Shown: positions 43,197-61,984 of the stretch, one piece after another
Layout: every line of letters starts with the position of its first letter
Numbering within the stretch: position 1 is the first letter of the stretch
Source of the DNA: an uncultured Mycoplasmatota bacterium
Lineage (GTDB): Bacteria; Bacillota_I; Bacilli_A; RF39; UBA660
Length of the DNA: 64,000 nucleotides
Direction: 5' to 3'
Assembly (NCBI GenBank): GCA_946494015.1
Contig: CAMMBL010000001.1
Location: 1,699-65,698 of the forward strand
Made by a program: the position numbers and the translations under genes
The notes under the pieces: model-generated
Seen by the model: the letters and a program-made list of their open reading frames with translations, nothing else
The model's database searches: none
Told to the model about the DNA's origin: nothing

Positions 43197-44372
43197 ATGG
43201 AAAAAGTAATATTAATTAAATATGGAGAATTAACTACTAAAAAAGGTAATCGTAATTTTTTTGTTAAAACTTTAACAAAAAATATAGAAAATAAATTACA
43301 AGATTATAATATTGAAATTGAAAAAGATCTTTCAAGAATGTATATTCATTATAATGAAATAGATGAAAAAGATATTATAAGTAAAATTCATCAAATCTTT
43401 GGAATTCATTCTTATCATATCGCTTATGTTACTAATAGTGATATGGAATCTATTAAAAATGAATTAATAAAAACTATAAAACTTGAAGAATTTAAAACTT
43501 TTAAAGTAGAAGTAAAAAGAAGTGATAAAACATTTCCTAAAACAAGTATGGAACTATCTCCTATATTTGGTAGTATAGTTTTAAAAAATAAGGACAATAT
43601 TAAAGTAGATGTTAATAATCCTGATACTATTATTCATATTGAAATAAGAAAAGATCATACTTATATCTATTATAATGCATATCCTGGTTTAGGAGGATAT
43701 CCTAGTACTATTCAAGGTAAAGGATTATTAATGTTAAGTGGAGGAATAGATTCTCCAGTTGCCGGTTTTCTTGCTATGAAAAGAGGAATAAAAATAGAAG
43801 CAGTATATTTTGAAGCGATACCACATACTAGTTTAGAAGCAAGAGAAAAAGTAATAACTTTAGTAAATAAACTAAAAGTATATACTAATGATATTAAACT
43901 ATATATAGTACCATTTACTAAAATACAAGAAGAAATATATAAAAAAGTTTCTCCTAACTATGTTATTACTATTATGCGCAGAATGATGTATCGTATTATG
44001 GAAAATTTATGTAAAAAAAATAATGCTAAAGTAATAATTAATGGAGAATCAATTGGACAAGTTGCATCTCAAACATTAAATAGTATGTATGTTATAAATA
44101 ATGTAACTAATATACCTGTAATTAGACCAGTAGCATGTTTAGATAAATTAGAAATAATAGATATTGCTAAAAAAATAGATACTTATGAAACAAGTATATT
44201 GCCTTATGAAGATTGTTGTACAGTCTTTGTTCCTAAACATCCTATAATTAATCCAACTTTAGAAGAAACAATAAAAGAGGAAGAAAAAATAGATTATGAG
44301 AAAATTTTACAAGAAACAATAGATAATACTTTTATTTATAAAGAAAAAAATGATTATGAAAATATTCTTTAG
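43197..44372 (+). CDS. thiI: tRNA 4-thiouridine synthase
   Basis: THUMP N-terminus; PP-loop SGGIDSPVA. Confidence 0.92.
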   Translation: MEKVILIKYGELTTKKGNRNFFVKTLTKNIENKLQDYNIEIEKDLSRMYIHYNEIDEKDIISKIHQIFGIHSYHIAYVTNSDMESIKNELIKTIKLEEFKTFKVEVKRSDKTFPKTSMELSPIFGSIVLKNKDNIKVDVNNPDTIIHIEIRKDHTYIYYNAYPGLGGYPSTIQGKGLLMLSGGIDSPVAGFLAMKRGIKIEAVYFEAIPHTSLEAREKVITLVNKLKVYTNDIKLYIVPFTKIQEEIYKKVSPNYVITIMRRMMYRIMENLCKKNNAKVIINGESIGQVASQTLNSMYVINNVTNIPVIRPVACLDKLEIIDIAKKIDTYETSILPYEDCCTVFVPKHPIINPTLEETIKEEEKIDYEKILQETIDNTFIYKEKNDYENIL

Positions 44373-44446
44373 GTAAAAATTGGAAGTAAAAAAAATGTAT
44401 GAAATTTAAAAAAATTCGCATTCTACTAGTGTAGGAGGTGAAACAA

Positions 44447-44662
44447 ATGAACAACAAAATGAACACAGGTTCAATGAAAATGAGAGTTCCTGGTGCTAAA
44501 CAAGCTATCGATAAAATGAAATATGAAATAGCTAATGAATTCGGTGTTAATTTAGGACCAGATGCTACTAGCCGTGCTAACGGTTCAGTTGGTGGTGAAA
44601 TCACTAGACGTTTAGTACAAAACGGATTAAATCAAGTTAGCGGAAGTTATAGTAATAAATAA
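44447..44662 (+). CDS. Small acid-soluble spore protein, alpha/beta type (ATG 44447 after AGGAGGTG)
   Basis: [10 protein letters not shown] and [13 protein letters not shown] signatures. Confidence 0.85.
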
Positions 44663-44674
44663 GTAATATAACTT

Positions 44675-44712
44675 AGTCGATAGGTCATAAATGACCTATC
44701 TTTTTTATATAT
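44675..44712 (+). terminator. Rho-independent terminator
   Basis: GATAGGTCA-taaa-TGACCTATC then TTTTTT. Confidence 0.7.
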
Positions 44713-44856
44713 CTATTTAGATTACATATAAATAAAATTTAGCTTTATCTTTAATGTTATTTTAAGTAAAGAATAAACTTTTTATATAAAAGTACTAGCC
44801 TAGTTAAGAAATATTTGTTATACTATAAATAGTAAAAAAAGATAGGGTGTTAGCGA

Positions 44857-46788
44857 ATGGAAAAGAAATTTTTTAATAAGAGGAAAAAATTTACTAAAGA
44901 AAAAATAGAAGATTATGATTTTAAAGAAATATCTTTAACCAAAATGGCTAAAAGACAATTATTTGTAACTTTACTATCAATATTAGGAGTAACGATAATA
45001 TCCTTAGGGAGTGCCTATGCGGTATTTACATCAATCTCAAAATCAGCAGATTATAATGTAATAAAAGTAGGAACATTAAATATAGATTTTGGAGAAGATG
45101 GAAATAATACAATAGATTTAAGTAATCAATATCCAGTTAGTGATGAAGAAGGACTAACACTAGCGCCATATACATTTACAATAACAAACACAGGAACGCT
45201 AGCAGCAGATTATGAAGTATTTTTACAAGATGATGAAAATATGATAAGTGAAGATAATTGTTCAGATAAACAATTAAACAAAGATTATATAAAATATAAA
45301 TTAGATACAAAAGAACCAGCCATATTATCAAGTATAGCAGCAAGTAATTATAAATTAGCAGAAGGAACCTTACAACCAAGTGGAAGTGTAACCTATGTTT
45401 TATATGTCTGGATAAGAGAAGGAGTAGGAAATGATGTATTAGGAAAACATTATCATGGTAAGATAGTAGTAAATGGAGTAAATAGCAGTGGAGAACCAGC
45501 AAATGAAGTAGTATTGGAAAATATAGGAGAAAATGGAAGTACCTATGATGATGGAACAGATACCTTTATAACAGGAACAGATCCAAATAATTATGTATGG
45601 TATAGTGGGAAGTTATGGAGAGCAGTATCTATTAATAATGAAGCGAAAACAACAAAATTAGTAACGGAGTGGAATATAAGTGCAATTATCTATTCAAGTG
45701 GAAGTACAGCCTTTGAAGGAAGTTATATGGAAGAATGGTTAAATGATACAAGTGTAGATGGCTTCTTAGGTAATTTAAGAGAACCAGAAAAATTTATTGA
45801 AACCAATGCAAAATGGGATGCAACAATGGATTCAACTGATTTGGGTAGTATTCAAAAACCAAAAGGGACAACAATAGTAAACAATGCTGTAGGACTACTA
45901 AATATGTATGAATATCAATCTAGTAATAATGGCGGAACAGCTGGTTATTTAAATAATGGACTTAATTGGATGACTTTAACACCGTATAATACGTCTGACG
46001 TGCGTTACGTCGACTTAGATGGCGGCGCGGACTACTTCACTCCTACTGTCCCAGACGGTGTTCGTCCATCCATAAATCTAAAATCTAGCATTAAAATCGT
46101 AGATGGTGATGGAACGATAGATAATCCATACAGATTAAATGGAGATAATGACACTAATCTTTCAGGAACATTTCTTTCAAGTAGATATAGTGGAGAATAC
46201 ATCCGCTTTGGAAATGATGAAAATAATCTATATAGAATAGTAAGCCATGAAACGGATGGGTTAACTAAAATAGTCAGTGCCCAACCATTAAAGAGTTCTG
46301 GTGAATTTATAAGAAGTGCATTTGGCAGTAATGTAACATTTTCAAGTGCAAATATAATCGGTAATTTTCTAAATGGCGAATACTTAAATAGTTATGTAGA
46401 TAGTAAATATAGAGATATGATAGAAGACGAGACAGTATGGTATCTTGGAACAGTAGGAAATAGTGCATCATATAAATTAGCCAAGTATACAGATGCAACT
46501 GGCACTACATTAACATCAAGTGTAACGACAGCGAAAGTAGGACTTTTGAGAATGGGAGAATTAATGGCGGGACAATTTTCAGCATATGGAAATAATAAAG
46601 AATATTGGTTATTAACACCAAGTGATGCGTCTAACGTGCGTAACGCCGGCAACAATGGCGACGCGAACGACTTCGGTCCGACTTTTGCTTACGGGGTTCG
46701 ACCATCCATAAATCTAAAATCTAACGTCGAGATAACCTCAGGAACAGGAACTGAATCTGATCCGTTCGTTCTGACTCTAGGAAGTTAG
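44857..46788 (+). CDS. DGR target (variable) protein: membrane-anchored surface protein with two tandem C-terminal-type domains, each carrying a variable repeat
   Basis: N-terminal TM (LFVTLLSILGVTIISLGSAYAV). Two duplicated ~50-aa segments (...NTSDVRYVDLDGGADYFTPTVPDGVRPSINLKS... and ...DASNVRNAGNNGDANDFGPTFAYGVRPSINLKS...) correspond to VR1 and VR2. Confidence 0.8.
   Translation: MEKKFFNKRKKFTKEKIEDYDFKEISLTKMAKRQLFVTLLSILGVTIISLGSAYAVFTSISKSADYNVIKVGTLNIDFGEDGNNTIDLSNQYPVSDEEGLTLAPYTFTITNTGTLAADYEVFLQDDENMISEDNCSDKQLNKDYIKYKLDTKEPAILSSIAASNYKLAEGTLQPSGSVTYVLYVWIREGVGNDVLGKHYHGKIVVNGVNSSGEPANEVVLENIGENGSTYDDGTDTFITGTDPNNYVWYSGKLWRAVSINNEAKTTKLVTEWNISAIIYSSGSTAFEGSYMEEWLNDTSVDGFLGNLREPEKFIETNAKWDATMDSTDLGSIQKPKGTTIVNNAVGLLNMYEYQSSNNGGTAGYLNNGLNWMTLTPYNTSDVRYVDLDGGADYFTPTVPDGVRPSINLKSSIKIVDGDGTIDNPYRLNGDNDTNLSGTFLSSRYSGEYIRFGNDENNLYRIVSHETDGLTKIVSAQPLKSSGEFIRSAFGSNVTFSSANIIGNFLNGEYLNSYVDSKYRDMIEDETVWYLGTVGNSASYKLAKYTDATGTTLTSSVTTAKVGLLRMGELMAGQFSAYGNNKEYWLLTPSDASNVRNAGNNGDANDFGPTFAYGVRPSINLKSNVEITSGTGTESDPFVLTLGS
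45989..46095 (+). repeat. DGR variable repeat 1 (more diverged from TR) with the same downstream 22-bp sequence as VR2 (candidate IMH)
   Basis: Aligns to TR; most mismatches fall at TR adenines (AAC codons become GAC/TAC/TTC), with a few non-A differences. Followed by CCATCCATAAATCTAAAATCTA, identical to the sequence after VR2. Confidence 0.5.
46627..46722 (+). repeat. DGR variable repeat 2 with downstream candidate IMH, at the 3' end of the target gene
   Basis: 73-bp core versus TR: 11 mismatches, 9 at TR adenines. TR AAC codons appear as GGC, GAC, TTC, TAC. Followed by CCATCCATAAATCTAAAATCTA. Confidence 0.75.
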
Positions 46789-46789
46789 A

Positions 46790-46830
46790 TGTCAGTAATC
46801 TAGGTAATGTATTTTCTAGATTACTGACTA
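46790..46830 (+). terminator. 13-bp perfect hairpin right after the target stop codon (terminator and/or DGR-associated stem-loop)
   Basis: GTCAGTAATCTAG-gtaatgtattttc-CTAGATTACTGAC. Confidence 0.55.
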
Positions 46831-46883
46831 ATTAAATTTGGCTATAATTAGATTAAATAAATTATAGTAGGGAATTACCATTA

Positions 46884-46968
46884 GTACGTCTAACGTGCGT
46901 AACGTCAACAACAATGGCGACGCGAACAACAACACTCCGACTAATGCTAACGGGGTTCGCCATTTCCT
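46884..46968 (+). repeat. DGR template repeat, adenine-rich at positions variable in the VRs; candidate IMH* follows
   Basis: ACGTCTAACGTGCGTAACGTCAACAACAATGGCGACGCGAACAACAACACTCCGACTAATGCTAACGGGGTTCG followed by CCATTTCCTTTTAAACCTAGCA, which differs from the sequence downstream of the VRs. Confidence 0.72.
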
Positions 46969-47241
46969 TTTAAACCTAGCATTATAGATAAGTCTATATA
47001 GAATAGATAAAAGGAACAGGTAATTTCCTTGTGTTAAAACACTAAAGACTAGATAGATAATAGAATTATAATTACTTATGAAACTATTTATACACTATCT
47101 GACCCTATAAAACTAAAGGAAAGATAAATCCAATAGTTTATGTCAAGTATAATAGTAAATTTATGTAAACTGTATAAATTTACAAATATGCTTGATTTTT
47201 TTTTTGATATGTTAAGGGAAAGATAGGAGAGTGTTAAATTT

Positions 47242-47466
47242 ATGAATAATAGTTTGGTTTATTTTAAACGTAAAGGAGTAATGATTTACGTAAGTAGAAA
47301 TGATAGTTACATTATTAGTTATTTATTAGATAAACCTTATAAAGATACATTCTATATTGAAAGAACTTCAATGAATAAGTTAATATCTTTACTTAATAAA
47401 TGCCATATTAATTATTATTATAATAATGTGTTATCTTTAAAGATAATAAATATTCTAAGTATCTAG
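47242..47466 (+). CDS. Small hypothetical ORF inside the DGR cassette (may be non-coding spacer)
   Basis: ORF only. Confidence 0.25.
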   Translation: MNNSLVYFKRKGVMIYVSRNDSYIISYLLDKPYKDTFYIERTSMNKLISLLNKCHINYYYNNVLSLKIINILSI

Positions 47467-47571
47467 AATATGGTAAATTAGTCTTTAGAATAGATAAATT
47501 ATCTACTAACTTAAAGAATTGTTTATACCTAGATAATATAGAAGAAATTATTTCTAAGATGGAGAAATTCT

Positions 47572-47913
47572 ATGAGTAATTTTTTCCTTGAAAATAAAAT
47601 TAAAGAAATAAATATAATTACTGATAAAATAATTTTAAATATTAATAATAAATATAAAACTACTAAGAATAGTATTATAGATTCTAATTATAAATTACTT
47701 TATTATTTGTATTATACTAATACTTTAGAAAAACCTAAAAGAATCTATATTCAAAGAAAAATGTTAGTAGAAGTTAAATTGTTAGATTATTACTATTATA
47801 AGATTTATACTTATAAAGAAATATCTAAAGATAAGTATATATCTATAAGTAAGAAATATATTACTATTACTAAATTAATATATGGATGGATTAAAAGTGA
47901 AAGTAGAGTTTAG
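47572..47913 (+). CDS. Candidate DGR accessory variability determinant (Avd-like, 113 aa)
   Basis: Size, position just upstream of and overlapping the RT, and a YYLYY...LEKPKRIYIQRKML segment resembling the Avd YLYP...IPRK...R..FL region. Confidence 0.4.
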   Translation: MSNFFLENKIKEINIITDKIILNINNKYKTTKNSIIDSNYKLLYYLYYTNTLEKPKRIYIQRKMLVEVKLLDYYYYKIYTYKEISKDKYISISKKYITITKLIYGWIKSESRV

Positions 47914-48835
47914 CGATATAGAAGATGCTTACTTAAAGATAAGAAAATCTATTAGAAATAAGAAAAATTTATATCGCTTTGAAAAGAATTATTATAGTAA
48001 TTGTAATATCTTAGTAGATAAAATTAATAATGGTAATTATATCTATAGTAATTATCATATCTTTACTATAATAGAGAAAAAGATGCGACTTATTATGAGT
48101 AGTACTTTAGAAGATAAAATAGTTAATCATGTTATCTGTAATAAAATTTTACTACCTTTAGATAAATACTTAATAGATAGTAATTGTGCTACTAGAATTG
48201 GTAGAGGTACTTCTTATGCTAGAAAATTATTAGATAAGTATCTTGTTAAGATTAAAAATAAATCTAATACTTTCTATATCCTTAAATTTGATTTTAGTAA
48301 GTACTTTTATAATATTAATCATAAAGTATTACTTAAAAAGTTAAGTAAATACTTAAATAATGAAGATTTATTATTAATTAAAGATATTTTAAATACTACT
48401 AATTATGATTATATTAATAATACTATAGATAAATTAAGAATAAATACTTTCTATAATAAAGATACTGGCTTACCTATAGGTAATTATACTTCTCAGTTTC
48501 TTGCAGTGTTTTATCTTAATGACTTAGATCACTATATTAAAGAAAAATTAGGCTGTAAATACTATATTAGATATATGGATGATGGTATTATTATAGATAG
48601 TAATAAAGAAAGACTAAAAGATATTTTAAAAATATTAGAAACTATTATTAAAGATGAATATCTATTAGAATTTAATAATAAGACTAAAATATATAAAAGT
48701 ACAGAAGGGTTTACTTTTCTAGGTATCAATTATAAAGTTAAAAATAATAAGATTTATAGAAAAATAATTAGTAAGACTAGAAAAAGATTAGTTAAGAAGA
48801 ATATTAAATATTATTTAAAATACGAAAAATTATAA
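47882..48835 (+). CDS. DGR reverse transcriptase
   Basis: RT motifs KKMRLIMSSTLEDKIVNHV, RIGRGTSYA, ILKFDFSKYFYNINH, catalytic YIRYMDDGII (YxDD); the DGR-specific IGNYTSQ (IGxxxSQ) motif; ~317 aa. Confidence 0.85.
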   Translation: MDGLKVKVEFSDIEDAYLKIRKSIRNKKNLYRFEKNYYSNCNILVDKINNGNYIYSNYHIFTIIEKKMRLIMSSTLEDKIVNHVICNKILLPLDKYLIDSNCATRIGRGTSYARKLLDKYLVKIKNKSNTFYILKFDFSKYFYNINHKVLLKKLSKYLNNEDLLLIKDILNTTNYDYINNTIDKLRINTFYNKDTGLPIGNYTSQFLAVFYLNDLDHYIKEKLGCKYYIRYMDDGIIIDSNKERLKDILKILETIIKDEYLLEFNNKTKIYKSTEGFTFLGINYKVKNNKIYRKIISKTRKRLVKKNIKYYLKYEKL

Positions 48836-48886
48836 TTTGTTCTTTTCTAATTATTATTATATAATAAATAAAAGGAGAGATGATTT

Positions 48887-50071
48887 ATGCTATTATTAGC
48901 TGTTAATTCTGGTAGTAGTACTTTAAAATTTAGATTATATGAGATGCCAGAAGAAAAAGTTATTACTAAAGGAAGTTTTGAACGGATTGGCTCTGTTGAT
49001 AGTGATTATACTATTAGAATTAATAATGAAAAAATATATGTAAAAAAAGAAATTAAAACTCATAAAGACGCTGTTGATATTTTATTAACAGAACTTGTGG
49101 AAAAAAATATTGTTAAAAGTCTTGATAATATTAAAGCAGTAGGACATAGAATAGTCCATGGAGGTTCACTATATTCTCATTCTGTTATTATTACTGATAG
49201 AGTAATTAATGAACTTGAAAATATAGAAGATTTAGCTCCTTTACATAATCCCGCTGCTATTAGTGGAATTAAAGCTTTTATTGAAGAAATACCTAGTGCT
49301 ACTATGGTTGCTTGTTTTGATACTGCTTTTCATCAAACTATTAAAGAAAAAGATTTTTTATATCCAGTTCCTTATGAATGGTATGTAAAATATGGTGTTA
49401 GAAAATATGGTTTTCATGGTTTGTCACATCAATATATAACTAATAAAATGAAAGGTATAATTGGTTTTGATGGTAATTTAATTATTTGTCATATAGGTAA
49501 TGGTGCAAGCATTACGGCTGTAAAAGAAGGAATATGTATTGATACTTCTATGGGATTTACTCCTAATGCTGGTATTATGATGGGAACTAGAAGTGGTGAT
49601 ATTGATTATAGTCTTATTGGTTATATTATGAAAAAAACAGGTTTATCATATACTGATATAGATACAATATTAAATAAAAAAAGTGGTCTTGAAGGTATTG
49701 CTGGTATGAGTGATTTACGAGATATAGATAGAGCTTATCTTGCTAAAGAAAATAAAGTAATACTTGCTATAGATATGTATACAGAACGTATTGCTGAATA
49801 TATTGCTAAATACTTCTTAAAGCTTGGTAAAGTAGATGGTATTGTATTTACAGCCGGAGGAGGAGAAAATGATCCTATTATTAGAAAAGAAGTTCTTAAT
49901 AAATTAAAACCTTTAGGAGTAGAACTTGATGAGAAATTAAATGAAGAAACTATTGTTAGAAAAGATAAAGAAGGACTTATTACTACTAAAGATTCATCTA
50001 TTGCAAGTTATGTCTTATCAACTGATGAAGAATTAGTAATTGCTAGAGATACTTATAATTTATCTAAGTAA
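48887..50071 (+). CDS. ackA: Acetate kinase (paralog 1)
   Basis: N-terminal LAVNSGSSTLKF; acetokinase family motifs. Confidence 0.88.
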   Translation: MLLLAVNSGSSTLKFRLYEMPEEKVITKGSFERIGSVDSDYTIRINNEKIYVKKEIKTHKDAVDILLTELVEKNIVKSLDNIKAVGHRIVHGGSLYSHSVIITDRVINELENIEDLAPLHNPAAISGIKAFIEEIPSATMVACFDTAFHQTIKEKDFLYPVPYEWYVKYGVRKYGFHGLSHQYITNKMKGIIGFDGNLIICHIGNGASITAVKEGICIDTSMGFTPNAGIMMGTRSGDIDYSLIGYIMKKTGLSYTDIDTILNKKSGLEGIAGMSDLRDIDRAYLAKENKVILAIDMYTERIAEYIAKYFLKLGKVDGIVFTAGGGENDPIIRKEVLNKLKPLGVELDEKLNEETIVRKDKEGLITTKDSSIASYVLSTDEELVIARDTYNLSK

Positions 50072-50192: not shown

Positions 50193-51368
50193 ATGAAAAT
50201 AATGTCTGTTAATGCTGGAAGTAGTTCATTAAAATTTAGTCTATTTAATATGGATCAAAAAGAAGTAATTGCTTCTGGTTATTTTGAACGTGTAGGATTA
50301 GAAGGTAGTTTTTATACAATTAAATATAATGGAGATAAAATAAAAGAAGAAGTAGAAATGCCAAATCATACAGTAGCAGTTGAAGTAATGTTAGATCGTT
50401 TAATAACTTTAGGTATTATTAAATCTTTAGAGGAAATAGATGGAATTGGACATAGAATTGTTCATGGCTATACTTATGATCATTCAGTTATTATTACTGA
50501 TAAAGTAATAGAAGATATCAAATCATATGCTGATTTCGCTCCTTTACATAATCCCGCTCATATTCTAGGTATAGAAGCTTGTAAAAAATCATTACCTAAT
50601 GTTCCTATGGTAGCAGTTTTTGATACTGCTTTCCATCAAACTATGCCAAAAGAAAACTATATATATCCAGTTCCTTACAGTTGGTATGAAAATTATGGAG
50701 TACGTAAATATGGTGCTCATGGAACTAGTCATAAATATATTTCTAAACGCTTAAGTGAAATTATGAATACTAAAGATTTAAAAGTAATAGTATGTCATTT
50801 AGGAAGTGGTTGTTCTTTAAGTGCCATTAAAAATGGTATTTGTCTTGATACTTCTATGGGCTTTACTCCTTTAGCTGGTGTTATGATGGGAACTAGAAGT
50901 GGTGATGTAGATCCTTCTATTATTCCTTATGTAATGGAAAAAGAAGGCTTAAATGCTAAAGAAGTAGTTGATATGTTAAATAAAAAATCAGGACTTTTAG
51001 GAGTTAGTGAAAAATATAGTGATTACCGTGATATTAGAAAAGCTATGGAAGAAGGCGATGAACAAGCTATTTTAGCTAATAAAATATTTGTTAATACTGT
51101 AGTAAAATATATTGCTAATTATTATGTAGAACTTGAAGGAATTGATGCTTTAGTATTTACAGCTGGCTTAGGAGAAAATAGTTCCCCAGCTCGTCATGAT
51201 ATCGTTTCTAAATTAGGTATATTAGGTATAAGTATTGATGAAGAAAAAAATAATATAACAGGAGAAGAAGTAGAGCTTACTGGAAAAGATTCTAAAGTTA
51301 AAGTTTATGCTATTCCAACTAATGAAGAATTAATGATTGCTCTTGAAACTTTAAATTTAATTAGATAG
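50193..51368 (+). CDS. ackA: Acetate kinase (paralog 2)
   Basis: MSVNAGSSSLKF; acetokinase family. Confidence 0.88.
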   Translation: MKIMSVNAGSSSLKFSLFNMDQKEVIASGYFERVGLEGSFYTIKYNGDKIKEEVEMPNHTVAVEVMLDRLITLGIIKSLEEIDGIGHRIVHGYTYDHSVIITDKVIEDIKSYADFAPLHNPAHILGIEACKKSLPNVPMVAVFDTAFHQTMPKENYIYPVPYSWYENYGVRKYGAHGTSHKYISKRLSEIMNTKDLKVIVCHLGSGCSLSAIKNGICLDTSMGFTPLAGVMMGTRSGDVDPSIIPYVMEKEGLNAKEVVDMLNKKSGLLGVSEKYSDYRDIRKAMEEGDEQAILANKIFVNTVVKYIANYYVELEGIDALVFTAGLGENSSPARHDIVSKLGILGISIDEEKNNITGEEVELTGKDSKVKVYAIPTNEELMIALETLNLIR

Positions 51369-53367: not shown

Positions 53368-53646
53368 TTATAGAACAATAGCAATCATATTATTAGAGCC
53401 TTTATTAACTACTTTAGAAAGAGTTTGTTGTAGTTTAAATCTAATATTATCTGGCATAGAATTAATCTTAGCTTGGATACCTTCTTGAACTATATTATCT
53501 AAACTACGACCAAATATTTCACTTTTCCAAATTTCACTAGGATTATTTTCATAATCTCTCATCAAATAATCAATTAACTCTTTACTTTGAACTTCACTAC
53601 CAATAATAGGTTCAAAAGTAGAATTAACATCAACTCTAATCATATG
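53368..53646 (-). CDS. spoIVA: Stage IV sporulation protein A, C-terminal fragment, separated from the N-terminal part by the intervening element
   Basis: Reads (H)MIRVDVNSTFEPIIGSEVQSKELIDYLMRDYENNPSEIWKSEIFGRSLDNIVQEGIQAKINSMPDNIRFKLQQTLSKVVNKGSNNMIAIVL, which matches the SpoIVA C-terminus as I recall it from Bacillus subtilis. Confidence 0.85.
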   Translation of the reverse strand, partial: HMIRVDVNSTFEPIIGSEVQSKELIDYLMRDYENNPSEIWKSEIFGRSLDNIVQEGIQAKINSMPDNIRFKLQQTLSKVVNKGSNNMIAIVL

Positions 53647-55270
53647 CATAAGAACTATTAAACTGCTGTGATTTGTTTTTTATATAATCGGCTTCTATTT
53701 CGGTGCCGACTTTTAGGTATATTTTTAATTTAACTTTCTTTTTATCATCCATATGATATACGACAATTTTATCTAATAATTCAAATAATACTTCATCACT
53801 AGGATTATTAACTTTATTTTCAATTAACAATTCTAATTTTTTTATTTCTTCTTCCATATTATTAGCTTTTAATTCTTCTTCTTTAATGACATTTAATTCT
53901 TTTTCTATTTTACTTAATCTTAAATTACAGTCATCATTTCTTTCTTTAAACTCTTTATCACTAATAATTTCATTTATATTATGACTTAATAATTTATCTT
54001 TTTCCTTTTTAATCTTTTCTATTTCGCTCAACTTTTTATTTTTTTCTTTCTCAAAATCTCTTAAACTTATATTTTCTCTATATAAATTAGTTAAATTATA
54101 AATAATTGACTTTCTTTGATTTATAAAATCTATTAAATTATGTCTTAATATTTTAACTAATTCTTTTTCATATAAAACTGGTGTTTTACATTTATCATCT
54201 TTACTTCTATTATTATGAGGACATATCCATACGACTTCATCATCTTTTGTCTTATAATTATATACTTTTCTATGAAAATGTCTATTATGTTCATTACATA
54301 CTATTTTACCACTAAATTTATATCTATTTTGATAAACTCTTTTATCAACATCTTTATACTTATCACTTCTTTGATTATATATCTTTTGTGCTAAATCCCA
54401 TATTTCTTCACTTACAATAGGGGGAACAGTATCATAATCTTTATACATAATCCAATCTTCTTCATCTTTTCTAACAATTGTTTTTAATTTATAGTCAACA
54501 ATCGTTGTTTTATTTCCACAATAATAACCTTTATATTTTGGGTTTTTAATAATATTTGCTACTGTTGTCATAGCAAGTACATTTCCATTTCTATTTTTAA
54601 AACCTTCTTTATATAATTCCCTTGCTACTGCTGCCATTCCATATTTACCACTACAATATAATTCAAATATTCTTTTAACCATTTTTGCTTCTTCTTCATT
54701 TATAACTAACTTACCATCTTTTTTATCATAACCCCATATATCATTATTACCTAAAACTCTGCCACTCTTAATAGATCTTTTAAAACCAAATTTAACTCTT
54801 TCTGATAATTTCCTAACTTCATCTTGTGCTAATGATGTCATTATTGTTAGTCTTAATTCTGAATCAGCGTCTAATGTATTTATATTATCATTTAAGAAAT
54901 ATACACCAACACCATCTTTTAATAATTCTCTTGTATTTTTAATACTATCTAATGTATCCCTTGCAAACCTTGATACTTCCTTTGTGATAATTAAATCAAA
55001 TTTACCTTCTTTAGCATCTTTAATCATTTTATTAAAACTATCTCTTTTATTTGTTGATGTCCCACTTATTCCTTCATCAACATAACCTTCAACAAATTCC
55101 CAATTTTCTTTTTCTCTTATCATTTCTTCAAAGAAATTAACTTGATTTTCTAATGAATTTAATTGTTCATATTTATCTGTTGAAACCCTTGCATAATAGG
55201 CAACTCTTAATTTTAAATCAAATACCGTTTTCCCAGTTTTAAATTCTTCTCTTATTTTATATAAATCCAT
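53636..55270 (-). CDS. Large serine recombinase (SpoIVCA/CisA-like); its last codons span the left junction core
   Basis: N-terminal resolvase domain with YARVSTD; recombinase domain; zinc ribbon (CNEHNRH...WICPHNNR...C); C-terminal coiled coil; 544 aa. Confidence 0.9.
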   Translation of the reverse strand: MDLYKIREEFKTGKTVFDLKLRVAYYARVSTDKYEQLNSLENQVNFFEEMIREKENWEFVEGYVDEGISGTSTNKRDSFNKMIKDAKEGKFDLIITKEVSRFARDTLDSIKNTRELLKDGVGVYFLNDNINTLDADSELRLTIMTSLAQDEVRKLSERVKFGFKRSIKSGRVLGNNDIWGYDKKDGKLVINEEEAKMVKRIFELYCSGKYGMAAVARELYKEGFKNRNGNVLAMTTVANIIKNPKYKGYYCGNKTTIVDYKLKTIVRKDEEDWIMYKDYDTVPPIVSEEIWDLAQKIYNQRSDKYKDVDKRVYQNRYKFSGKIVCNEHNRHFHRKVYNYKTKDDEVVWICPHNNRSKDDKCKTPVLYEKELVKILRHNLIDFINQRKSIIYNLTNLYRENISLRDFEKEKNKKLSEIEKIKKEKDKLLSHNINEIISDKEFKERNDDCNLRLSKIEKELNVIKEEELKANNMEEEIKKLELLIENKVNNPSDEVLFELLDKIVVYHMDDKKKVKLKIYLKVGTEIEADYIKNKSQQFNSSYAYD

Positions 55271-55284
55271 TTATATCATCACCT

Positions 55285-55560
55285 TTATACTTTAATTATT
55301 TCTGCTATTGGCTTTATTCTTTCTAATAATATCTTTTCAACTTTCTCATATAACTCTTTTGATATATTTCCTTTTTCATATAATTCTTTATTTATTTTTA
55401 ATTCTAATTCATAAGAACATAATACATTTTTAAATATATTAAAAGGCTTCATATCTTTTATAGTTTCATCAATATATGTGGTATCAATATTTCCAAACTC
55501 ATCTTCTTCATATTCTTTTACAACTTTGTCATTTTCATCTAATTCATAATAATATGCCAT
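55285..55560 (-). CDS. Small acidic protein upstream of the recombinase (candidate recombination directionality factor or unknown)
   Basis: 91-aa ORF, co-oriented and adjacent to the LSR. Confidence 0.3.
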   Translation of the reverse strand: MAYYYELDENDKVVKEYEEDEFGNIDTTYIDETIKDMKPFNIFKNVLCSYELELKINKELYEKGNISKELYEKVEKILLERIKPIAEIIKV

Positions 55561-55680
55561 ATATATTCCTCCTATTTAAGATTATTCGCAATCATAAATA
55601 ATATAATAATTATTTATCTACAAAATGCATAAATAAATTATAAATTACTCATAATAATAAATTGCCCCTAAATATTCTCC

Positions 55681-55726
55681 TATATATATTATACGATTTT
55701 TATTTTTCAAAAATTGCCATTTTGAG
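55681..55726. repeat. Copy 1 of a ~44-bp direct repeat (ATATATATTATACGATTTTTATTTTTCAAAAATTGCCATTTT) in the 5' region of the small-ORF/recombinase unit
   Basis: Near-identical copy at 60431..60474, upstream of the Rep-like gene. Confidence 0.6.
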
Positions 55727-55773
55727 ATTTATTTTTAAAATTTATTTAATTTTTTAGCATTTTTTATCGATTT

Positions 55774-56376
55774 TTAATCATTTTGGCTATTTTTTATTAA
55801 ATTATAAAATGTATTATTCTTTAAACCTAATAATTCCATTGCTTCTTTACTTTTTATTTTTTTATCTTTCCATTTACTCATAACTTCATCATAATTACTT
55901 GGCTTTTCTATTTTAGGTCTTCCAAATTTAACACCTTTTTTTAAAGCATTTTCTATTCCTTCTTTTTGTCTTAACTTTATAAAACTTCTCTCTTGCTCTG
56001 CAACATAACTTAATATTTGCAAAACTAAATCACTTATAAATGTTCCTAATAAATCTTTATTATTTCTCGTATCTAATAAAGGCATATCAATAACGACTAT
56101 ATCTGCTTTTATATTTTTTGTTATATCTTTCCATTCTTCAATAATCATATTATAATTTCTACCTAATCTATCAATACTCTTAATTACTAATAAATCATTT
56201 TCTCTTAATATATGCTTTAATATTAAATAATTTTCTCTATTAAAATCTTTTCCACTTTGCTTATCTACATAAATATCTCTTTCATCAATATTAAAATCTT
56301 TAAAGGCATTTATTTGTCTTTCTTCATTTTGTTCTTTACTGCTAACCCTTGCATACCCAAAAACTTTATTATTCAT
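55774..56376 (-). CDS. Small serine recombinase (resolvase/invertase family) with C-terminal HTH
   Basis: GYARVSSKEQ catalytic motif; 200 aa. Confidence 0.85.
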   Translation of the reverse strand: MNNKVFGYARVSSKEQNEERQINAFKDFNIDERDIYVDKQSGKDFNRENYLILKHILRENDLLVIKSIDRLGRNYNMIIEEWKDITKNIKADIVVIDMPLLDTRNNKDLLGTFISDLVLQILSYVAEQERSFIKLRQKEGIENALKKGVKFGRPKIEKPSNYDEVMSKWKDKKIKSKEAMELLGLKNNTFYNLIKNSQND

Positions 56377-56385
56377 ATGTAAAAC

Positions 56386-56619
56386 CTACCTTGCTAAATA
56401 ATTACTAAATTCCCTAAAAATTCTATCAAATATGCTATCTTCAAATGTTCCTACTAATTCGAGCTTAATATTTTTTTCTCTTAATTCGGCTAAAAAATTA
56501 GAGCAAGCAATAGTAATAGGGAAATCATTTGCATTATTTTCTTCTATTGCCGTCATTATAGTATCTACATAACCATCGCATACCATTGTTACAATATTTC
56601 TTAAAATTTCTTCTTTCAT
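56386..56619 (-). CDS. Hypothetical small protein
   Basis: ORF only. Confidence 0.35.
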   Translation of the reverse strand: MKEEILRNIVTMVCDGYVDTIMTAIEENNANDFPITIACSNFLAELREKNIKLELVGTFEDSIFDRIFREFSNYLAR

Positions 56620-56804
56620 TCATTACACCCCCTTACTATGAAAAAATATTATATTTTCACTTTTTCAAAAAAACAACTCTTTTATTTAAAAATCTCAAAA
56701 AACTTTTCAAACATTTAAAAACTCCAATATATACTTTTTCAAATAAAAAAAAGACTTAATTCATATCAAAATTAAATCTTTATAAACCTTTACTTTTTTA
56801 AATA

Positions 56805-57590
56805 CTATTTCCATTCATAATCAATAAATAAATAATTTCTAATCTCTTTATATAAAATACTTATATTAGATTCATTGCTCAATAAAATATGATTATATGT
56901 ATTATATATTCCAGGCATATTAAAATCTTTTTCTCCTTTATTATACCTTTCAAAATATTCTTTAAAAAAATCTTCTAATACTTTTTTAATATTTACAGAA
57001 GTATTAAAATTTATATTATGTTTCATTTGAAGTAATATTTTTTGAAATCTCGTAGGCAAAAAAGGATTTTCAATAAAACTATTAAGTTGGTTCATATATT
57101 CTATAAATTTTTTGGATATATATATCATTTCAATATCAATATCTCCATTTTTTGCTTTCTTAAAATTTTCTTCCTTGTAGTTATTTATTTCTTTTTCAGA
57201 TAATTCTTTGGAGAAAGGCTGCAATATTTCAATAAATTCTGAATTTTCTTTTTGAGAAACAATTCTTTGCCCACATCTTCTATTCTTCAACATCTCTTTT
57301 ATTTCTTTCTGATTTTTTAATACAAAACCATAGTCAATTAAAAATTGTAAAACATTCAACTCTAATAATTCATAGTAATCAACATCTAATTTAATAAAAT
57401 TTAAAATTTCTTCTAATAATACCGCTTGCTTTTTTATAGTCTCATTTCTTATTGGTTGCAATACTGTTGATTTTGCTCTCTTATATGTTAATACAGCAAT
57501 TATTGTTGCTATTAAAGTAAAAATTATCCATAACACATCTTTAATCCACACAACATTTGTTAATATAAAATTATATATATTAGACCACAT
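56805..57590 (-). CDS. Hypothetical protein with N-terminal TM segment
   Basis: ORF; hydrophobic N-terminus. Confidence 0.45.
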   Translation of the reverse strand: MWSNIYNFILTNVVWIKDVLWIIFTLIATIIAVLTYKRAKSTVLQPIRNETIKKQAVLLEEILNFIKLDVDYYELLELNVLQFLIDYGFVLKNQKEIKEMLKNRRCGQRIVSQKENSEFIEILQPFSKELSEKEINNYKEENFKKAKNGDIDIEMIYISKKFIEYMNQLNSFIENPFLPTRFQKILLQMKHNINFNTSVNIKKVLEDFFKEYFERYNKGEKDFNMPGIYNTYNHILLSNESNISILYKEIRNYLFIDYEWK

Positions 57591-57645
57591 AATATCACCA
57601 CGACAATATTATACAGTATTTTTACTTTTTTTCACAACTTACCTT

Positions 57646-58176
57646 TTAAATTTCATATAAATTTTTAATTTCTTCATTAGGCAATATCAATGTAAAATCA
57701 ATATCATATTTTAATACTAAATAATTTAATAACTCTACAACTTTTTTTGCAATATCATTATGCTTATAACCTTGTACCTCAGTTCCTAAACTAACACTAA
57801 TAATACTTTTATACATATTCTTTTTTGCTTCAATTATTATTTTATAATAACTAAATAATAAATCATTTATTGCGACATTAACATCTTCATATTCATAATA
57901 ATTAGGACATAAAATATGCAATATATCTATACCAATATCAAAACCTGGGCTAAATCTAACTTCATTTACTTTCATATTATCTTTATACTGCTTTTTACAA
58001 TATTCTTCTAATAATTCTTTATTAGCTTTTTCATATATTAAATTACAAATACCACTTCCACAAAACATATTTTTATTTGCACTATTAACTATTAAATCTT
58101 TGCTATCTAAATAATCTAAAATATTTCCACAAACAATATTTAATTTTGCCACAATAAACCACCTTAATAATATCAA
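57646..58176 (-). CDS. Macro-domain protein (ADP-ribose binding/hydrolase-like); true start probably near VAKLNIV
   Basis: GNILDY...LIVNSANKNMFCGSGICNLIYEKA resembles the macro-domain VNAAN...GGGV signature. Confidence 0.55.
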   Translation of the reverse strand: MILLRWFIVAKLNIVCGNILDYLDSKDLIVNSANKNMFCGSGICNLIYEKANKELLEEYCKKQYKDNMKVNEVRFSPGFDIGIDILHILCPNYYEYEDVNVAINDLLFSYYKIIIEAKKNMYKSIISVSLGTEVQGYKHNDIAKKVVELLNYLVLKYDIDFTLILPNEEIKNLYEI

Positions 58177-58307
58177 TTACATAAATATAATATATATCTA
58201 ATTATACCTTCAATTTTTAGCAAATAACAATTCATTTAATCAATTTAATATAATTATATAATAAAATACAAAAAGTCCTTTAAAACTGCTCTAAATTATC
58301 AAATATT

Positions 58308-58874
58308 CTATTCATAAAAATTAAGCTGCTTTTCAATACATATATAATTATTTTTATCTTTCTTATTTCTATCACTTATAATATTTTCATATTTATTTGA
58401 ACTATCTAAATTTCTTTTAATAACATTAACAAATAAATTCCATTCTTTATCAGTAGGCAACTCATCACTAAAAACAAACATAAAATCAAAATTTTCTCCA
58501 TGGCTTAATAATCTCGACTTTATACTTTTTTCATTACTATTACCAACCATAAAACCATATTTTAAACCATTATATAATTCTTTATGTGCCTTTGCTTTAT
58601 TGCTATAAGTAATAACATCATGGGTAGAGTAGGTATTATATTTACTTTCAATTATTACCTTTGGCACTAAATTTTTTCCACGCTTTTCTTTTATTACTAA
58701 ATCAACTTCATATTTCCTATATTTAATTTTTTCTTCTTCATTTTTATAGTCTTCTATATATACCGAATAAGGCACCTTATCAAAACAACTTATTTCATAT
58801 TTATTATTATCTAATTCATCTTTTAATTTATCACATATTTTCATAGTCCATTTATCTTCTAATCTATCTCTCAT
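58308..58874 (-). CDS. Hypothetical protein with possible PD-(D/E)xK nuclease-like motif
   Basis: EVDLVI...VIIESKY arrangement; weak. Confidence 0.35.
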   Translation of the reverse strand: MRDRLEDKWTMKICDKLKDELDNNKYEISCFDKVPYSVYIEDYKNEEEKIKYRKYEVDLVIKEKRGKNLVPKVIIESKYNTYSTHDVITYSNKAKAHKELYNGLKYGFMVGNSNEKSIKSRLLSHGENFDFMFVFSDELPTDKEWNLFVNVIKRNLDSSNKYENIISDRNKKDKNNYICIEKQLNFYE

Positions 58875-58997
58875 ATCTAAAACTCCTTAACTTATATAAA
58901 TTATATCATAAAATATATAATATTAAGCATACAAATATAACTAATATTGCTATCACTAATTTCTAATAATGAGACAATTATATTAGGAGGCAATATT

Positions 58998-59327
58998 ATG
59001 AAAAACAACTTAAAAGAAATTAGAGTTTCAAAGAATTTATTACAAACAAAAGTAGCAATAGACTTAAATACAACCCAAGAAACTATATCTTCTTATGAAA
59101 CTGGCAGAGTATTCCCAAGTTCCGATATGCTCATTAAACTTGCTGATTATTATAATACATCTATCGATTATTTATTATGCCGAACTAAATATAATATGCC
59201 AATAGATGATATTAAACCTAATAACATTAGCGATTACGACTTTATATTATTAAATAAAATAAATAAATTATCTAATATAAATAAAGCAAAAGTAGAAGCA
59301 TATATAGATGGCTTAAATGACAACTAA
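58998..59327 (+). CDS. XRE-family HTH transcriptional regulator (ATG 58998 after GGAGG; track start 58947)
   Basis: LKEIRVSKNLLQTKVAIDLNTTQETISSYETG is a Cro/C1-type HTH. Confidence 0.75.
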   Translation: MKNNLKEIRVSKNLLQTKVAIDLNTTQETISSYETGRVFPSSDMLIKLADYYNTSIDYLLCRTKYNMPIDDIKPNNISDYDFILLNKINKLSNINKAKVEAYIDGLNDN

Positions 59328-59567
59328 CTTCTAAATATATACATATTTATCTAAAACACCTTAATATTTCCTTATTTTATAATCAAATATCAAATAATAT
59401 ATATAAAAATATCTGCTAAATTATATACCTATCTTTATACTTATTAACCTTATTATTTTTCCAATTCTTTATACTTTACTATATATAATTTATATATTTA
59501 TTTTTATACATATTTATTAAATATTATATGATAGCTAAAAACTATCTTTTTTTATGCTATATTTCCT

Positions 59568-60404: not shown

Positions 60405-60430
60405 AATACATACCTTCTTTTAATACCTTC

Positions 60431-60474
60431 ATATATATTATACGATTTTTATTTTTCAAAACTTGCCATTTTCC
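60431..60474. repeat. Copy 2 of the ~44-bp direct repeat, immediately upstream of the Rep-like gene
   Basis: ATATATATTATACGATTTTTATTTTTCAAAACTTGCCATTTT. Confidence 0.6.
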
Positions 60475-60669
60475 CATATTTTCTGCAAATTTCTTAAATT
60501 TTTCTCATTTTAGCCATTTTAAAGCATCATTGCCAAATTATAATATAAATTATTAAATAACTTATTAAACCTTTAAAACAGCCAAATAAATATGCTTATA
60601 TTATCTCTAAACAAAAAAAACAATTCTTATCTCTAAAAATTGCCGTATCTAATAATAATTAAACTAATT

Positions 60670-61968: not shown

Positions 61969-61984
61969 AATCATCACCTTTTCT

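Follow-up and report, generated by a model that had tools for sequence, protein, structure and literature searches.

Diversity-generating retroelements (DGRs) have their prototype in the Bordetella phage BPP-1, where the order is mtd-avd-TR-brt and where sequence is transferred in an adenine-specific manner from a template repeat (TR) to a variable region (VR). This system combines a reverse transcriptase (RT) carrying the IGxxxSQ motif and residues R74 and I181, whose roles in adenine mutagenesis have been described (PMC7826257), an Avd partner, a target with a C-type-lectin fold and flanks that differ between VR (IMH) and TR (IMH*). Its RNA shows a duplex of the TR 3' end with the spacer, a 2-nt gap, a duplex of upstream sequence with the spacer, a short stem-loop and adenosines (bioRxiv 10.1101/2023.10.23.563531). 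The MSL-containing DGRs, Architecture D of Wu et al. 2018, which include that of Legionella pneumophila, have avd but no HRDC, and a small, near-neutral protein resembling MutS domain I (MSL; 112-283 aa, pI 7.2 +/- 1.7) adjoins avd and RT; three RTs carry such a domain on their C-terminus (PMC5758913, in which the MSL class was defined). Targets in which several VRs draw on a single TR, the IMH of the internal VR lying inside the coding sequence, are also on record, such as a CLec1 target with three VRs (PMC5758913) and the multi-VR DGRs of the DiGReF survey (PMC3521204). DUF6273 has already been reported as a lectin-like domain of DGR targets (PMC10743442), and the DUF6273 targets of gut phages nd4 and nd12 ('tentaclins'; PMC10743442), together with TvpA of Treponema denticola (2y3c) and the N-terminal DUF6273 domain of the Thomasclavelia ramosa IgA protease (9qa6; PMC12402451), are among the closest known systems. 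The protease domain is not known as diversified, and the sources, including PMC12402451, link no DGR to it; its likeness points to a binding-type module in common and not to a common function.

Our analysis of a 64-kb window, the whole stretch of DNA under study, indicates that the region 44857-48835 is almost certainly a chromosomal DGR of the avd+MSL architecture, with one template and two VRs in one surface protein. Its identity as a DGR is genuine, every anatomical element that we tested having been found, and its kind has been described before, both in the avd+MSL architecture and in the multi-VR target. The host is an uncultured gut Bacilli bacterium, very AT-rich and spore-forming, near Candidatus Onthousia; its clade, gut Bacilli MAGs, is not named in the survey of Architecture D ('Tenericutes' and 'Mycoplasma' are absent from the text of PMC5758913). 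The initial annotation had read this region as a DGR with the order target-TR-(small ORF)-avd-RT. The reading is supported by the adenine-specific TR/VR relation, the DGR-type RT, Avd, the lectin-like target domain, a covarying RNA and related loci; the order on the forward strand also stands, refined to target-TR-MSL-avd-RT by the recognition of the small ORF as a frameshifted MSL accessory gene. The ORFs of 643, 113 and 317 aa are present as it reported, as is one of 74 aa. The locus differs from BPP-1 in being chromosomal instead of phage-borne, and in having two VRs in one gene and the extra MSL gene.

The TR (46887..46959) is non-coding and contains 23 adenines, mostly in AAC/AAT triplets, and TRs of relatives retain the AAC pattern. 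To VR2 (46628..46700), the C-terminal variable region at residues 591-615, it aligns over 73 nt without gaps, with 11 mismatches, 9 at TR adenines, one at a T and one at a C; both the coordinates and the counts given in the initial annotation are correct. The bias is clear, with 9/23 TR adenines changed against 2/50 other bases (Fisher one-sided p = 3e-4), and in frame the gene has GGC, GAC, TTC, TTT and TAC opposite AAC or AAT in the TR, as was claimed. The repeat pair first noted was nevertheless incomplete, since a third copy in the same gene had been overlooked: VR1 (45992..46064), an internal variable region at residues 379-403, which differs from the TR at 20 positions, 14 of them TR adenines (Fisher p = 3e-5). 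No further copy of the TR with 30 or fewer mismatches occurs on either strand of the whole window. Non-adenine mismatches make up 6 of the 20 in VR1, the largest share in its subfamily, and fit drift after the last homing event; three of these six are bases present in TRs of related lineages, which looks as if the TR had changed after VR1 was last rewritten. The TR starts 98 nt 3' of the target stop codon (46788), not the 190 bp reported at first, and 186 nt 3' of the end of VR2. An identical 22-nt element, CCATCCATAAATCTAAAATCTA, follows VR1 (46066..46087), where it also codes for the conserved PSINLKS motif, and VR2 (46702..46723), while the TR is followed by CCATTTCCTTTTAAACCTAGCA; the distinct flanks of gene copy and template were thus rightly noted. 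By likeness to the Bordetella phage DGR, this IMH-like element would act as the homing signal. Unlike the homing-aiding hairpin of the Bordetella phage, no significant hairpin was found 3' of either VR (z -0.9 and -0.5).

The target gene (44857..46788) encodes 643 aa, with a basic N-terminal stretch and a single hydrophobic anchor (residues 35-53), then some 160 aa of N-terminal region and two tandem DUF6273 repeats, each of which ends in a VR. In contrast to other multi-VR DGRs, the two VRs go back to a tandem duplication that took in the entire DUF6273 domain, and this arrangement is conserved across the subfamily (the window and loci L003, L004, L011, L014, L016, L019 and L020). The model of the second, VR2-bearing domain has a C-type-lectin fold, which is what the initial annotation had proposed to look for by structure prediction, whereas the first is a predicted domain of this type, assigned by its DUF6273 match only. 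The membrane anchor is as expected of a cellular surface protein. Placed beside the tentaclins and TvpA, the target differs in being cellular and membrane-anchored, with two DUF6273 domains and C-terminal VRs, and the RT of the locus is only 34% identical to that of phage nd12, the nearest phage RT match.

The RT (47882..48835; 317 aa) has its IGNYTSQ motif at residue 199 and its YMDD motif at 231, both motifs having been recognized at the outset; relatives begin at an ATG five codons further in. It matches Pfam RVT_1 at 1e-20, and in a profile search against PDB its best match is the Bordetella phage bRT (8ub7, E 6e-31), followed by a group II maturase (1e-15), although its sequence is only distantly related to that of BPP-1. 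Residues F61, R69, I71, I199 and Q205 align with bRT F66, R74, I76, I181 and Q187; the first four are invariant among 22 aligned RTs and Q205 is present in at least 90%, and the [I/V/L]GxxxSQ motif is kept. The avd gene (47572..47913; 113 aa, pI 9.66) overlaps the RT start. The product of the window itself matches Pfam bAvd at E 0.081, below any Pfam threshold, but 25 of 30 aligned family members match bAvd (best 6e-14), which places the ORF first called Avd-like in this family; over its full length, the family profile matches 2rld (E 0.006) and Bbp7/bAvd 4dwl (E 0.5). The MSL gene (47242..47580) is interrupted: a 74-aa ORF (47242-47466) is followed by the remaining 3' part in another frame, owing to the loss of 1 nt between 47428 and 47429 relative to the intact 112-aa gene of relative L001. 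The intact 112-aa protein has pI 7.7, and its size is at the lower end of the published length range. MSL homologues number 80 ORFs, about one per locus, in the 92 sequences searched (91 loci and the window), and in some relatives they are fused to the RT C-terminus, as in Architecture D, whose lack of HRDC is shared as well. Distant members match Pfam MutS_I above threshold; in the subfamily of the window, unlike in Architecture D, the domain has diverged too far for Pfam MutS_I to detect it, and the gene of the window is frameshifted.

Upstream of the TR, a conserved 13-bp hairpin just 3' of the target stop (46791..46828; DNA fold -11 kcal/mol, z -5.7), with compensatory stem changes in L001, L003 and L011, may act as a weak terminator or else insulate the TR transcript from the target gene. 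A TATAAT box (46843..46848), kept as GCTATAA(T) in 9/9 aligned relatives, is the putative -10 element for the TR RNA, whose promoter we can only infer because a consensus promoter scan is uninformative in such AT-rich DNA. The TR appears to be part of a conserved RNA some 350 nt long, roughly 46855-47206, including spacer-like RNA 3' of the TR (46960..47206) with helices, hairpins and a terminator. The 5' strand of helix P1, AGGGAATTACC (46869..46879), pairs with 47019-47029 over 11 bp, with 2 covarying pairs among close relatives; in the wider set of relatives, about 28/42 have a best duplex of the form (A/T)GG...CC(T/A), with many different inner sequences. Given the order target-TR-MSL-avd-RT, this upstream strand is intergenic and not the end of avd as in BPP-1. 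Helix P2, a duplex of template:primer type, joins the IMH* strand 46964-46972 to 47008-47016, encloses an inner stem-loop (46976-47006) and ends 2 nt before the 3' strand of P1. A short stem-loop (47031-47042), an A-rich single strand, more hairpins and an intrinsic terminator, with its stem at 47143-47195 and its T-run at 47196-47205, follow. The RNAalifold consensus has 57 pairs, 11 with compensatory changes; 98.9% of alignment cells pair, against 39-51% when the partners are slid as a control, and the single-sequence MFE is -85 kcal/mol (z -6.25). No Rfam family matches this RNA. P1 corresponds to the 'cPRT Stop' duplex closing the TR loop, and the helix plan as a whole matches that of the Bordetella DGR RNA in its template:primer duplex, stop duplex and terminator.

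Relatives of the cassette are abundant in gut Bacilli MAGs (Candidatus Onthousia-like), and of the 92 sequences scanned, which comprise 91 related loci and the window, 51 have adenine-biased TR/VR pairs. The sister-lineage loci L003 and L004 have an identical RT protein; 18/73 positions of VR1 and 15/73 of VR2 are unlike, as against 1/566 in the stretch from one VR to the next and 4 in the following 3.6 kb. Since they differ almost only inside both VRs, this architecture works. The window's own lineage presents another picture, for the population check that the initial annotation proposed on TR-adenine positions found no variation: VR2 is identical across seven assemblies and VR1 across five, although these come from different samples, diverge by 0-3% outside the VRs and differ at up to 15 positions in 546 nt nearby. 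Present activity in this lineage is therefore unproven and has possibly been lost, and, with the MSL gene frameshifted and the VRs identical, the element may currently be quiescent or disabled; what is questioned is activity, not DGR identity. A disabled or decaying DGR, in which the frameshift or another defect stopped retrohoming and left the VRs to ordinary mutation, is a serious contender that we consider somewhat short of an even chance, and it refines our explanation instead of replacing it. The frameshift is common to at least three independent assemblies (L092, L094 and L098), the same 74-aa ORF being called in L094 and L098, and the non-adenine mismatches of VR1 point the same way; on the other hand, RT, avd, TR and every RNA helix are intact, and most known DGRs do without MSL, the need for which has never been tested (PMC5758913). 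Moreover, L004 and L005, of the sister lineage with intact MSL, share an identical VR2 at 0.77% divergence, so that invariance at such depth does not prove inactivity, and assemblies are consensus sequences in which minority variants are hidden.

Two further readings concern the nature of the locus itself. That the repeats reflect ordinary domain duplication and gene conversion beside an RT of another class (group II intron, retron or defence RT) has a negligible probability in our estimate. Part of the similarity between VR1 and VR2 is indeed paralogy, as they lie in tandemly duplicated domains, and NCBIfam yields weak matches below cutoff to a group II maturase (93 bits against 300) and Drt3a (52 bits against 200). 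This reading is already contradicted by the third, non-coding copy, on whose own adenines the mismatches with both VRs fall, by IGNYTSQ in place of QGxxxSP, by a bRT match fifteen orders of magnitude better than that to maturases, and by dozens of relatives that carry the whole cassette with their own adenine-biased repeats; nor did Rfam models find a group II intron, a retron or any other RNA in 44000-49500. A prophage-borne DGR that switches tropism by diversifying a phage receptor-binding protein, like those of the Bordetella phage and the Faecalibacterium phages, is very improbable, if less so. Phage DGRs do have DUF6273 targets (PMC10743442), nd12 among them, but even this top phage RT is distant, the target has an N-terminal membrane anchor, and no phage genes surround the cassette, which is flanked by thiI and a SASP gene on one side and by two acetate kinase genes and an nrnA-like DHH gene on the other; relatives adjoin other housekeeping genes, such as polC, uvrC and mutL.

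For the chromosomal DGR that we favour, we propose that an RNA of about 350 nt would run from the conserved TATAAT box to the intrinsic terminator, with the 73-nt TR within a large loop. The IMH* segment directly 3' of the TR pairs with a spacer segment ending 2 nt before the closing duplex, the layout by which the Bordetella phage DGR brings its priming adenosine into position. On this RNA the RT-Avd complex would cis-prime, copy the TR toward its 5' end, misincorporate opposite the 23 template adenines and halt at the closing duplex, which would set the limit of the cDNA. With the same 22-nt IMH-like sequence after both VRs and not in the TR, transfer would be one-way, and the mutagenised cDNA would replace VR1 or VR2, both in one gene. 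These would form the ligand-facing ends of tandem DUF6273 domains, of which the second has been modelled with a lectin fold, in a membrane-anchored extracytoplasmic protein of this gut bacterium.

The cassette at 44857-48835 on the forward strand, in the order target gene, template repeat (TR), MutS-like accessory gene (MSL), avd and reverse transcriptase (RT), is a diversity-generating retroelement (DGR) by every testable defining feature. It combines adenine-specific template and variable repeats, a DGR-type RT, a lectin-type domain at the variable region, an Avd protein and RNA elements around the TR. Ongoing A-to-N variation in the population is found in a sister lineage and not in the window's own lineage. 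The initial annotation had read the locus as a DGR, and the adenine-specific repeats, the RT and the Avd family bear this reading out. As it had described, the variable region VR2 (46628-46700) at the 3' end of the 643-aa target gene (44857-46788) aligns with the TR (46887-46959) over 73 nt without gaps and with 11 mismatches, nine of which fall at TR adenines; at the remaining two the TR has one T and one C. Changes therefore affect 9 of the 23 TR adenines against 2 of the 50 other bases (Fisher one-sided p = 3e-4), which is unlikely to arise by chance because the TR holds only 23 adenines in its 73 bases. In the frame of the gene, AAC and AAT codons of the TR face GGC, GAC, TTC, TTT and TAC in VR2, as proposed, and the account of the VR2 and TR flanks was also correct. 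The sole slip was positional: 98 nt, rather than 190 bp, separate the stop codon from the start of the TR.

Our comparison also identifies a third copy in the same gene, VR1 (45992-46064), which had been missed and which differs from the TR at 20 positions, 14 of them adenines (Fisher p = 3e-5). The target therefore has two variable regions, at residues 379-403 (VR1) and 591-615 (VR2), so that the earlier description holds for VR2 but not for the assumption of a single region. No copy of the TR other than VR1 and VR2 was found on either strand of the window. The 22 nt directly after VR1, CCATCCATAAATCTAAAATCTA, recur as the same 22-mer after VR2 and double as coding sequence for a conserved peptide, whereas a different 22-mer follows the TR. 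As far as sequence comparison can tell, these elements would fit an IMH after the VRs and a diverged IMH* after the TR, as for one-way transfer. The remaining 6 of the 20 VR1 mismatches lie at non-adenine bases. A better template for these six was sought and rejected, as the TRs of relatives fit worse than the window TR and the window holds no second TR. Three of the six are bases present in the TRs of related lineages, as if the TR had changed after the last rewriting of VR1.

The RT (47882-48835) matches Pfam RVT_1 at 1e-20. Its exact sequence had no match in the assembly index; homologues, which number in thousands, were taken instead. When a profile of the window RT and 21 homologues (22 aligned sequences) was searched against the PDB, the best solved relative was the Bordetella phage DGR RT, bRT (8ub7, E 6e-31), against 1e-15 for group II maturases and weaker values still for retron and defence RTs. 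Both motifs reported before are in place, IGNYTSQ at residue 199 and YMDD at residue 231; in DGR RTs the motif [I/V/L]GxxxSQ replaces QGxxxSP (PMC7826257). Residues F61, R69, I71 and I199 are invariant in the 22 aligned RTs and Q205 is kept in at least 90% of them. Together they align with bRT F66, R74, I76, I181 and Q187, which touch the incoming nucleotide and the base of the template; adenine mutagenesis is promoted by R74 and I181 (PMC7826257; bioRxiv 10.1101/2023.10.23.563531). The initial annotation had named, as an outcome that would speak against a DGR, an RT from a retron or group II family without DGR motifs. For a group II intron, the RT scores 93 bits with NCBIfam group_II_RT_mat, where the cutoff is 300, and no Rfam intron RNA matched in 44000-49500 at E up to 1. 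Likewise, a retron or defence RT finds its nearest model in Drt3a (NCBIfam), at 52 bits against a cutoff of 200, and no retron RNA family was found by Rfam. With IGNYTSQ present, bRT the best match and the maturase and Drt3a models below their cutoffs, such an assignment does not hold here. A DGR may also be carried by a prophage, as the Bordetella element is by its phage. Such an origin was rejected from the gene context and from the best phage RT, which shares 34% identity. The cassette is flanked by thiI and a small acid-soluble spore protein gene, and by two tandem acetate kinase genes and a DHH phosphoesterase gene, and no phage genes lie near it. Because of this housekeeping context, the absence of phage genes nearby and the 34% identity, we consider the element a cellular DGR. 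The cassettes of relatives sit in other housekeeping neighbourhoods, and a genome search places the RT homologues in uncultured gut Bacilli, "Tenericutes" and Erysipelotrichaceae MAGs, with Candidatus Onthousia species as the closest named relatives (84-87% RT identity).

Several features of the surrounding DNA were noted in passing. The spore protein gene (44438-44662, +) lies immediately upstream of the target and is followed by a clean intrinsic terminator (44679-44700); the acetate kinase genes (48887-50071 and 50193-51368, +) lie directly downstream of the RT, and the same pair follows the RT in L001, a related locus with a 98% identical RT. Since it carries a small acid-soluble spore protein gene and spoIVA, this organism of about 24% GC is taken to be a spore former. 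The spoIVA gene is split within 53368-61977 (-), with its ATPase and middle domains at 60670-61977 and its C-terminal domain at 53368-53649. About 7 kb separate the two parts; this stretch codes for a large serine recombinase (53636-55270) and for a second, small resolvase (55774-56376), besides ORFs with Macro and SHOCT domains. It resembles an intervening element of the skin type, which would be cut out when the cell sporulates.

The avd ORF (47572-47913, 113 aa) overlaps the start of the RT and encodes a basic protein (pI 9.66), in keeping with the bAvd type of small, basic four-helix-bundle proteins. Alone it reaches only E 0.081 with Pfam bAvd; 25 of 30 aligned family members match that model, the best at 6e-14, which supports its earlier description as Avd-like. 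Over its full length the family profile matches 2rld at E 0.006 and Bbp7/bAvd (4dwl) at E 0.5. Among 92 sequences (91 related loci and the window), avd-homologous ORFs number 89, about one per locus, and a simple scan finds A-biased TR/VR pairs in 51 of the 92. The small ORF that had been placed before avd does exist (47242-47466, 74 aa), but it is not a whole gene; it is the 5' part of a frameshifted MSL, a gene of 111-115 aa in close relatives. Compared with L001, one nucleotide is deleted between 47428 and 47429, and the rest continues in another frame up to 47580. Because the same truncated 74-aa ORF is also called in L094 and L098, assemblies from two other samples, the frameshift is real and not a sequencing error. 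Homologues of MSL number 80 ORFs, again about one per locus, and their position varies: some precede avd, some follow the RT and some form a C-terminal extension of the RT. Distant members score 24-33 bits with Pfam MutS_I (cutoff 20.6), and this model detects no member of the window's own subfamily. The MSL class of Architecture D has been described as small, near-neutral and always together with avd (Wu et al. 2018, PMC5758913), and the intact MSL of a relative has 112 aa and a pI of 7.7. Judged by these homologies, the small ORF is assignable to the MSL accessory class, as a frameshifted copy from a subfamily below MutS_I detection. Variants of the arrangement were also seen: seven loci encode fusion proteins of about 495-500 aa, with a MutS_I-like MSL domain at the C-terminal end of the RT (L031, L035, L036, L037, L044, L050 and L062), and MSL follows the RT rather than preceding avd in five (L039, L071, L074, L078 and L087).

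The target protein starts with a basic stretch and contains a single, strongly hydrophobic segment (residues 35-53), followed by a region of about 160 residues and then by two repeats that both match Pfam DUF6273. VR1 and VR2 are the ends of these repeats, in line with the DGR pattern of a VR at the end of a ligand-binding domain (C-type-lectin or Ig fold) that tolerates variation. Gut phages are known to use DUF6273 as a lectin-like target domain of their DGRs (PMC10743442). A sequence-only search of the PDB with the VR-domain profile gave no match at E up to 10, and a fold comparison was therefore required. A full-length model from a shallow alignment of 36 close homologues was discarded (pLDDT 43.5), and residues 413-643 were modelled from a more diverse, profile-derived alignment with pLDDT 87.7 and pTM 0.85. 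In this model the VR2 domain is predicted to have the C-type-lectin fold common to established DGR targets, the fold that the initial annotation had proposed to look for at the C-terminus, and Foldseek agrees with this picture. The VR1 domain is probably of the same kind, an assignment that comes from its DUF6273 match. A target with two VRs is common to the window's subfamily (L003, L004, L011, L014, L016, L019 and L020).

A non-coding unit that lies between the end of the target gene and MSL is conserved among nine close relatives. It begins with a 13-bp hairpin (46791-46828; DNA fold z -5.7) that shows compensatory stem changes between lineages. An invariant TATAAT box follows (46843-46848), a putative promoter called only from its conservation in the nine relatives, because a scan for sigma-70 promoters and terminators performed no better than shuffles in such AT-rich DNA. 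About 250 nt of structured sequence lie 3' of the TR and end with a stem and T-run (47143-47205). An 11-bp helix, P1 (46869-46879 with 47019-47029), closes the loop containing the TR. The 9-bp helix P2 (46964-46972 with 47008-47016) has its 5' strand directly 3' of the TR, holds an inner stem-loop and ends 2 nt short of the P1 3' strand, and a short stem-loop (47031-47042) with adenosines next to it follows. Of the 57 pairs predicted by RNAalifold, 11 show compensatory changes. Outside the TR, 98.9% of cells in the scaffold can pair; sliding the partners by 1-3 columns lowers this to 39-51%, and 11 double-change pairs are observed against at most 2 in these slid controls. The window RNA alone folds at -85 kcal/mol (z -6.25). 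Among 42 wider relatives, about 28 have a P1-type helix, (A/T)GG...CC(T/A) with varied inner sequences, as the best pairing of their TR flanks. A strict combined scan for P1 and P2 is not discriminating in AT-rich DNA (21 of 42 loci, 50%, vs 21% in shuffles), and our case is built instead on RNAalifold, the pair counts and the recurrent AGG...CCT signature. No Rfam family covers the TR RNA, and Bordetella-type cruciform hairpins just after the VRs were not significant. By cryo-EM, the Bordetella DGR RNA has a TR:spacer template:primer duplex, 2 nt, an 11-bp upstream:spacer "cPRT Stop" duplex and, further on, a short stem-loop and A-minor adenosines, with an Avd-binding stem-loop just after the TR (bioRxiv 10.1101/2023.10.23.563531). 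The predicted layout of the window RNA matches this plan by analogy, helix for helix. On such a plan, cDNA synthesis would start near 46960-46963 and stop near 46881-46886, limits that coincide with those of TR/VR homology.

Whether the element still acts in the window's lineage is a separate question. The initial annotation had expected adenine-linked variation confined to the VRs and had named its absence as a refutation. In the window's lineage we find none: the VRs are identical in seven consensus assemblies, namely L092, which is 100% identical to the window, and six others (L093, L094, L095, L096, L097 and L098) with 0 to 3% divergence nearby. No differences occur in VR2 among the seven or in VR1 among five. 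Samples in which this strain is present are ERZ15845406, ERZ21819518, ERZ27349973, ERZ28614362, ERZ24773480, ERZ24773487 and ERZ27280814. This invariance bears only on present activity, and even there it is not conclusive, because L004 and L005 of the sister lineage, with intact MSL, differ by 0.77% yet share VR2, and because assemblies give the consensus sequence only. In that same sister lineage, L003 and L004 come from different samples, encode an identical RT protein and differ at 18 of 73 positions in VR1, 15 of 73 in VR2, 1 of 566 between the VRs and 4 in the 3.6 kb after them; differences of these VRs from their own TR are mostly at TR adenines. Since the differences are confined largely to the VRs, both sites of this architecture have been diversified in nature. 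We tentatively put at somewhat below even the chance that the element is disabled or quiescent in the window's lineage, given that the VRs are invariant, that MSL is frameshifted and that six VR1 mismatches lie outside adenines. A more specific version, which we regard as rather unlikely, is a natural knock-out of MSL, in which the frameshift stopped retrohoming with RT, Avd, TR and RNA scaffold intact, and the VRs were frozen with VR1 rewritten before VR2. If that were true, the two sites of a double-VR target would be used unequally, and a comparison with sister lineages in which MSL is intact would be the first functional way into the role of MSL in DGRs.

Variation of other kinds was observed in these relatives. 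L003 and L004 show about 60 differences clustered in the N-terminal, non-VR region of the target (L003 3179-3812), with the next 320 nt identical; this second hypervariable segment has no TR match and may be a recombination tract or reflect diversifying selection. Over 46778-48835 the window and L001 diverge as a mosaic, with 1 difference in avd, 8 in about 950 nt of RT and none in the last 150 nt of MSL, and high divergence in the 5' part of MSL (37 differences), the spacer RNA (21), the TR (10 of 73) and the target 3' end, which suggests recombination within the cassette or unequal constraint. The 591-nt contig L097 is 3.1% diverged from the window over 46370-46914 with an identical VR2, its differences being 6 in the 88 nt after VR2, 8 in the hairpin and promoter region and 2 in the TR; a recombination break just after VR2 is possible.

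No natural machinery other than DGRs is known to rewrite a selected segment of a protein at will, and their density is highest in the gut. The cassette described here is best placed in the already catalogued architecture with avd and MSL, with the frameshifted copy in a subfamily that MutS_I misses. A link between its target domain and DGRs was known before, and targets with several VRs have precedents, including one target gene with three VRs (PMC5758913) and other multi-VR DGRs (PMC3521204), so that the known picture of DGRs is unchanged. What the locus adds is an example from a poorly known clade, the small-genome, spore-forming gut Bacilli near Candidatus Onthousia, with three points of interest: a conserved double-VR target, an RNA that clearly matches the Bordetella plan although the clade is distant, and a natural MSL frameshift with frozen VRs. 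With one template serving two tandem DUF6273 domains of a surface protein, the possible binding surfaces of each molecule are squared in number. The Bordetella RNA scaffold is recognisable despite a distant RT and another gene order, which supports a general priming mechanism, and the frozen VRs beside a frameshifted MSL gene provide a natural comparison bearing on what MutS-like accessory proteins do.
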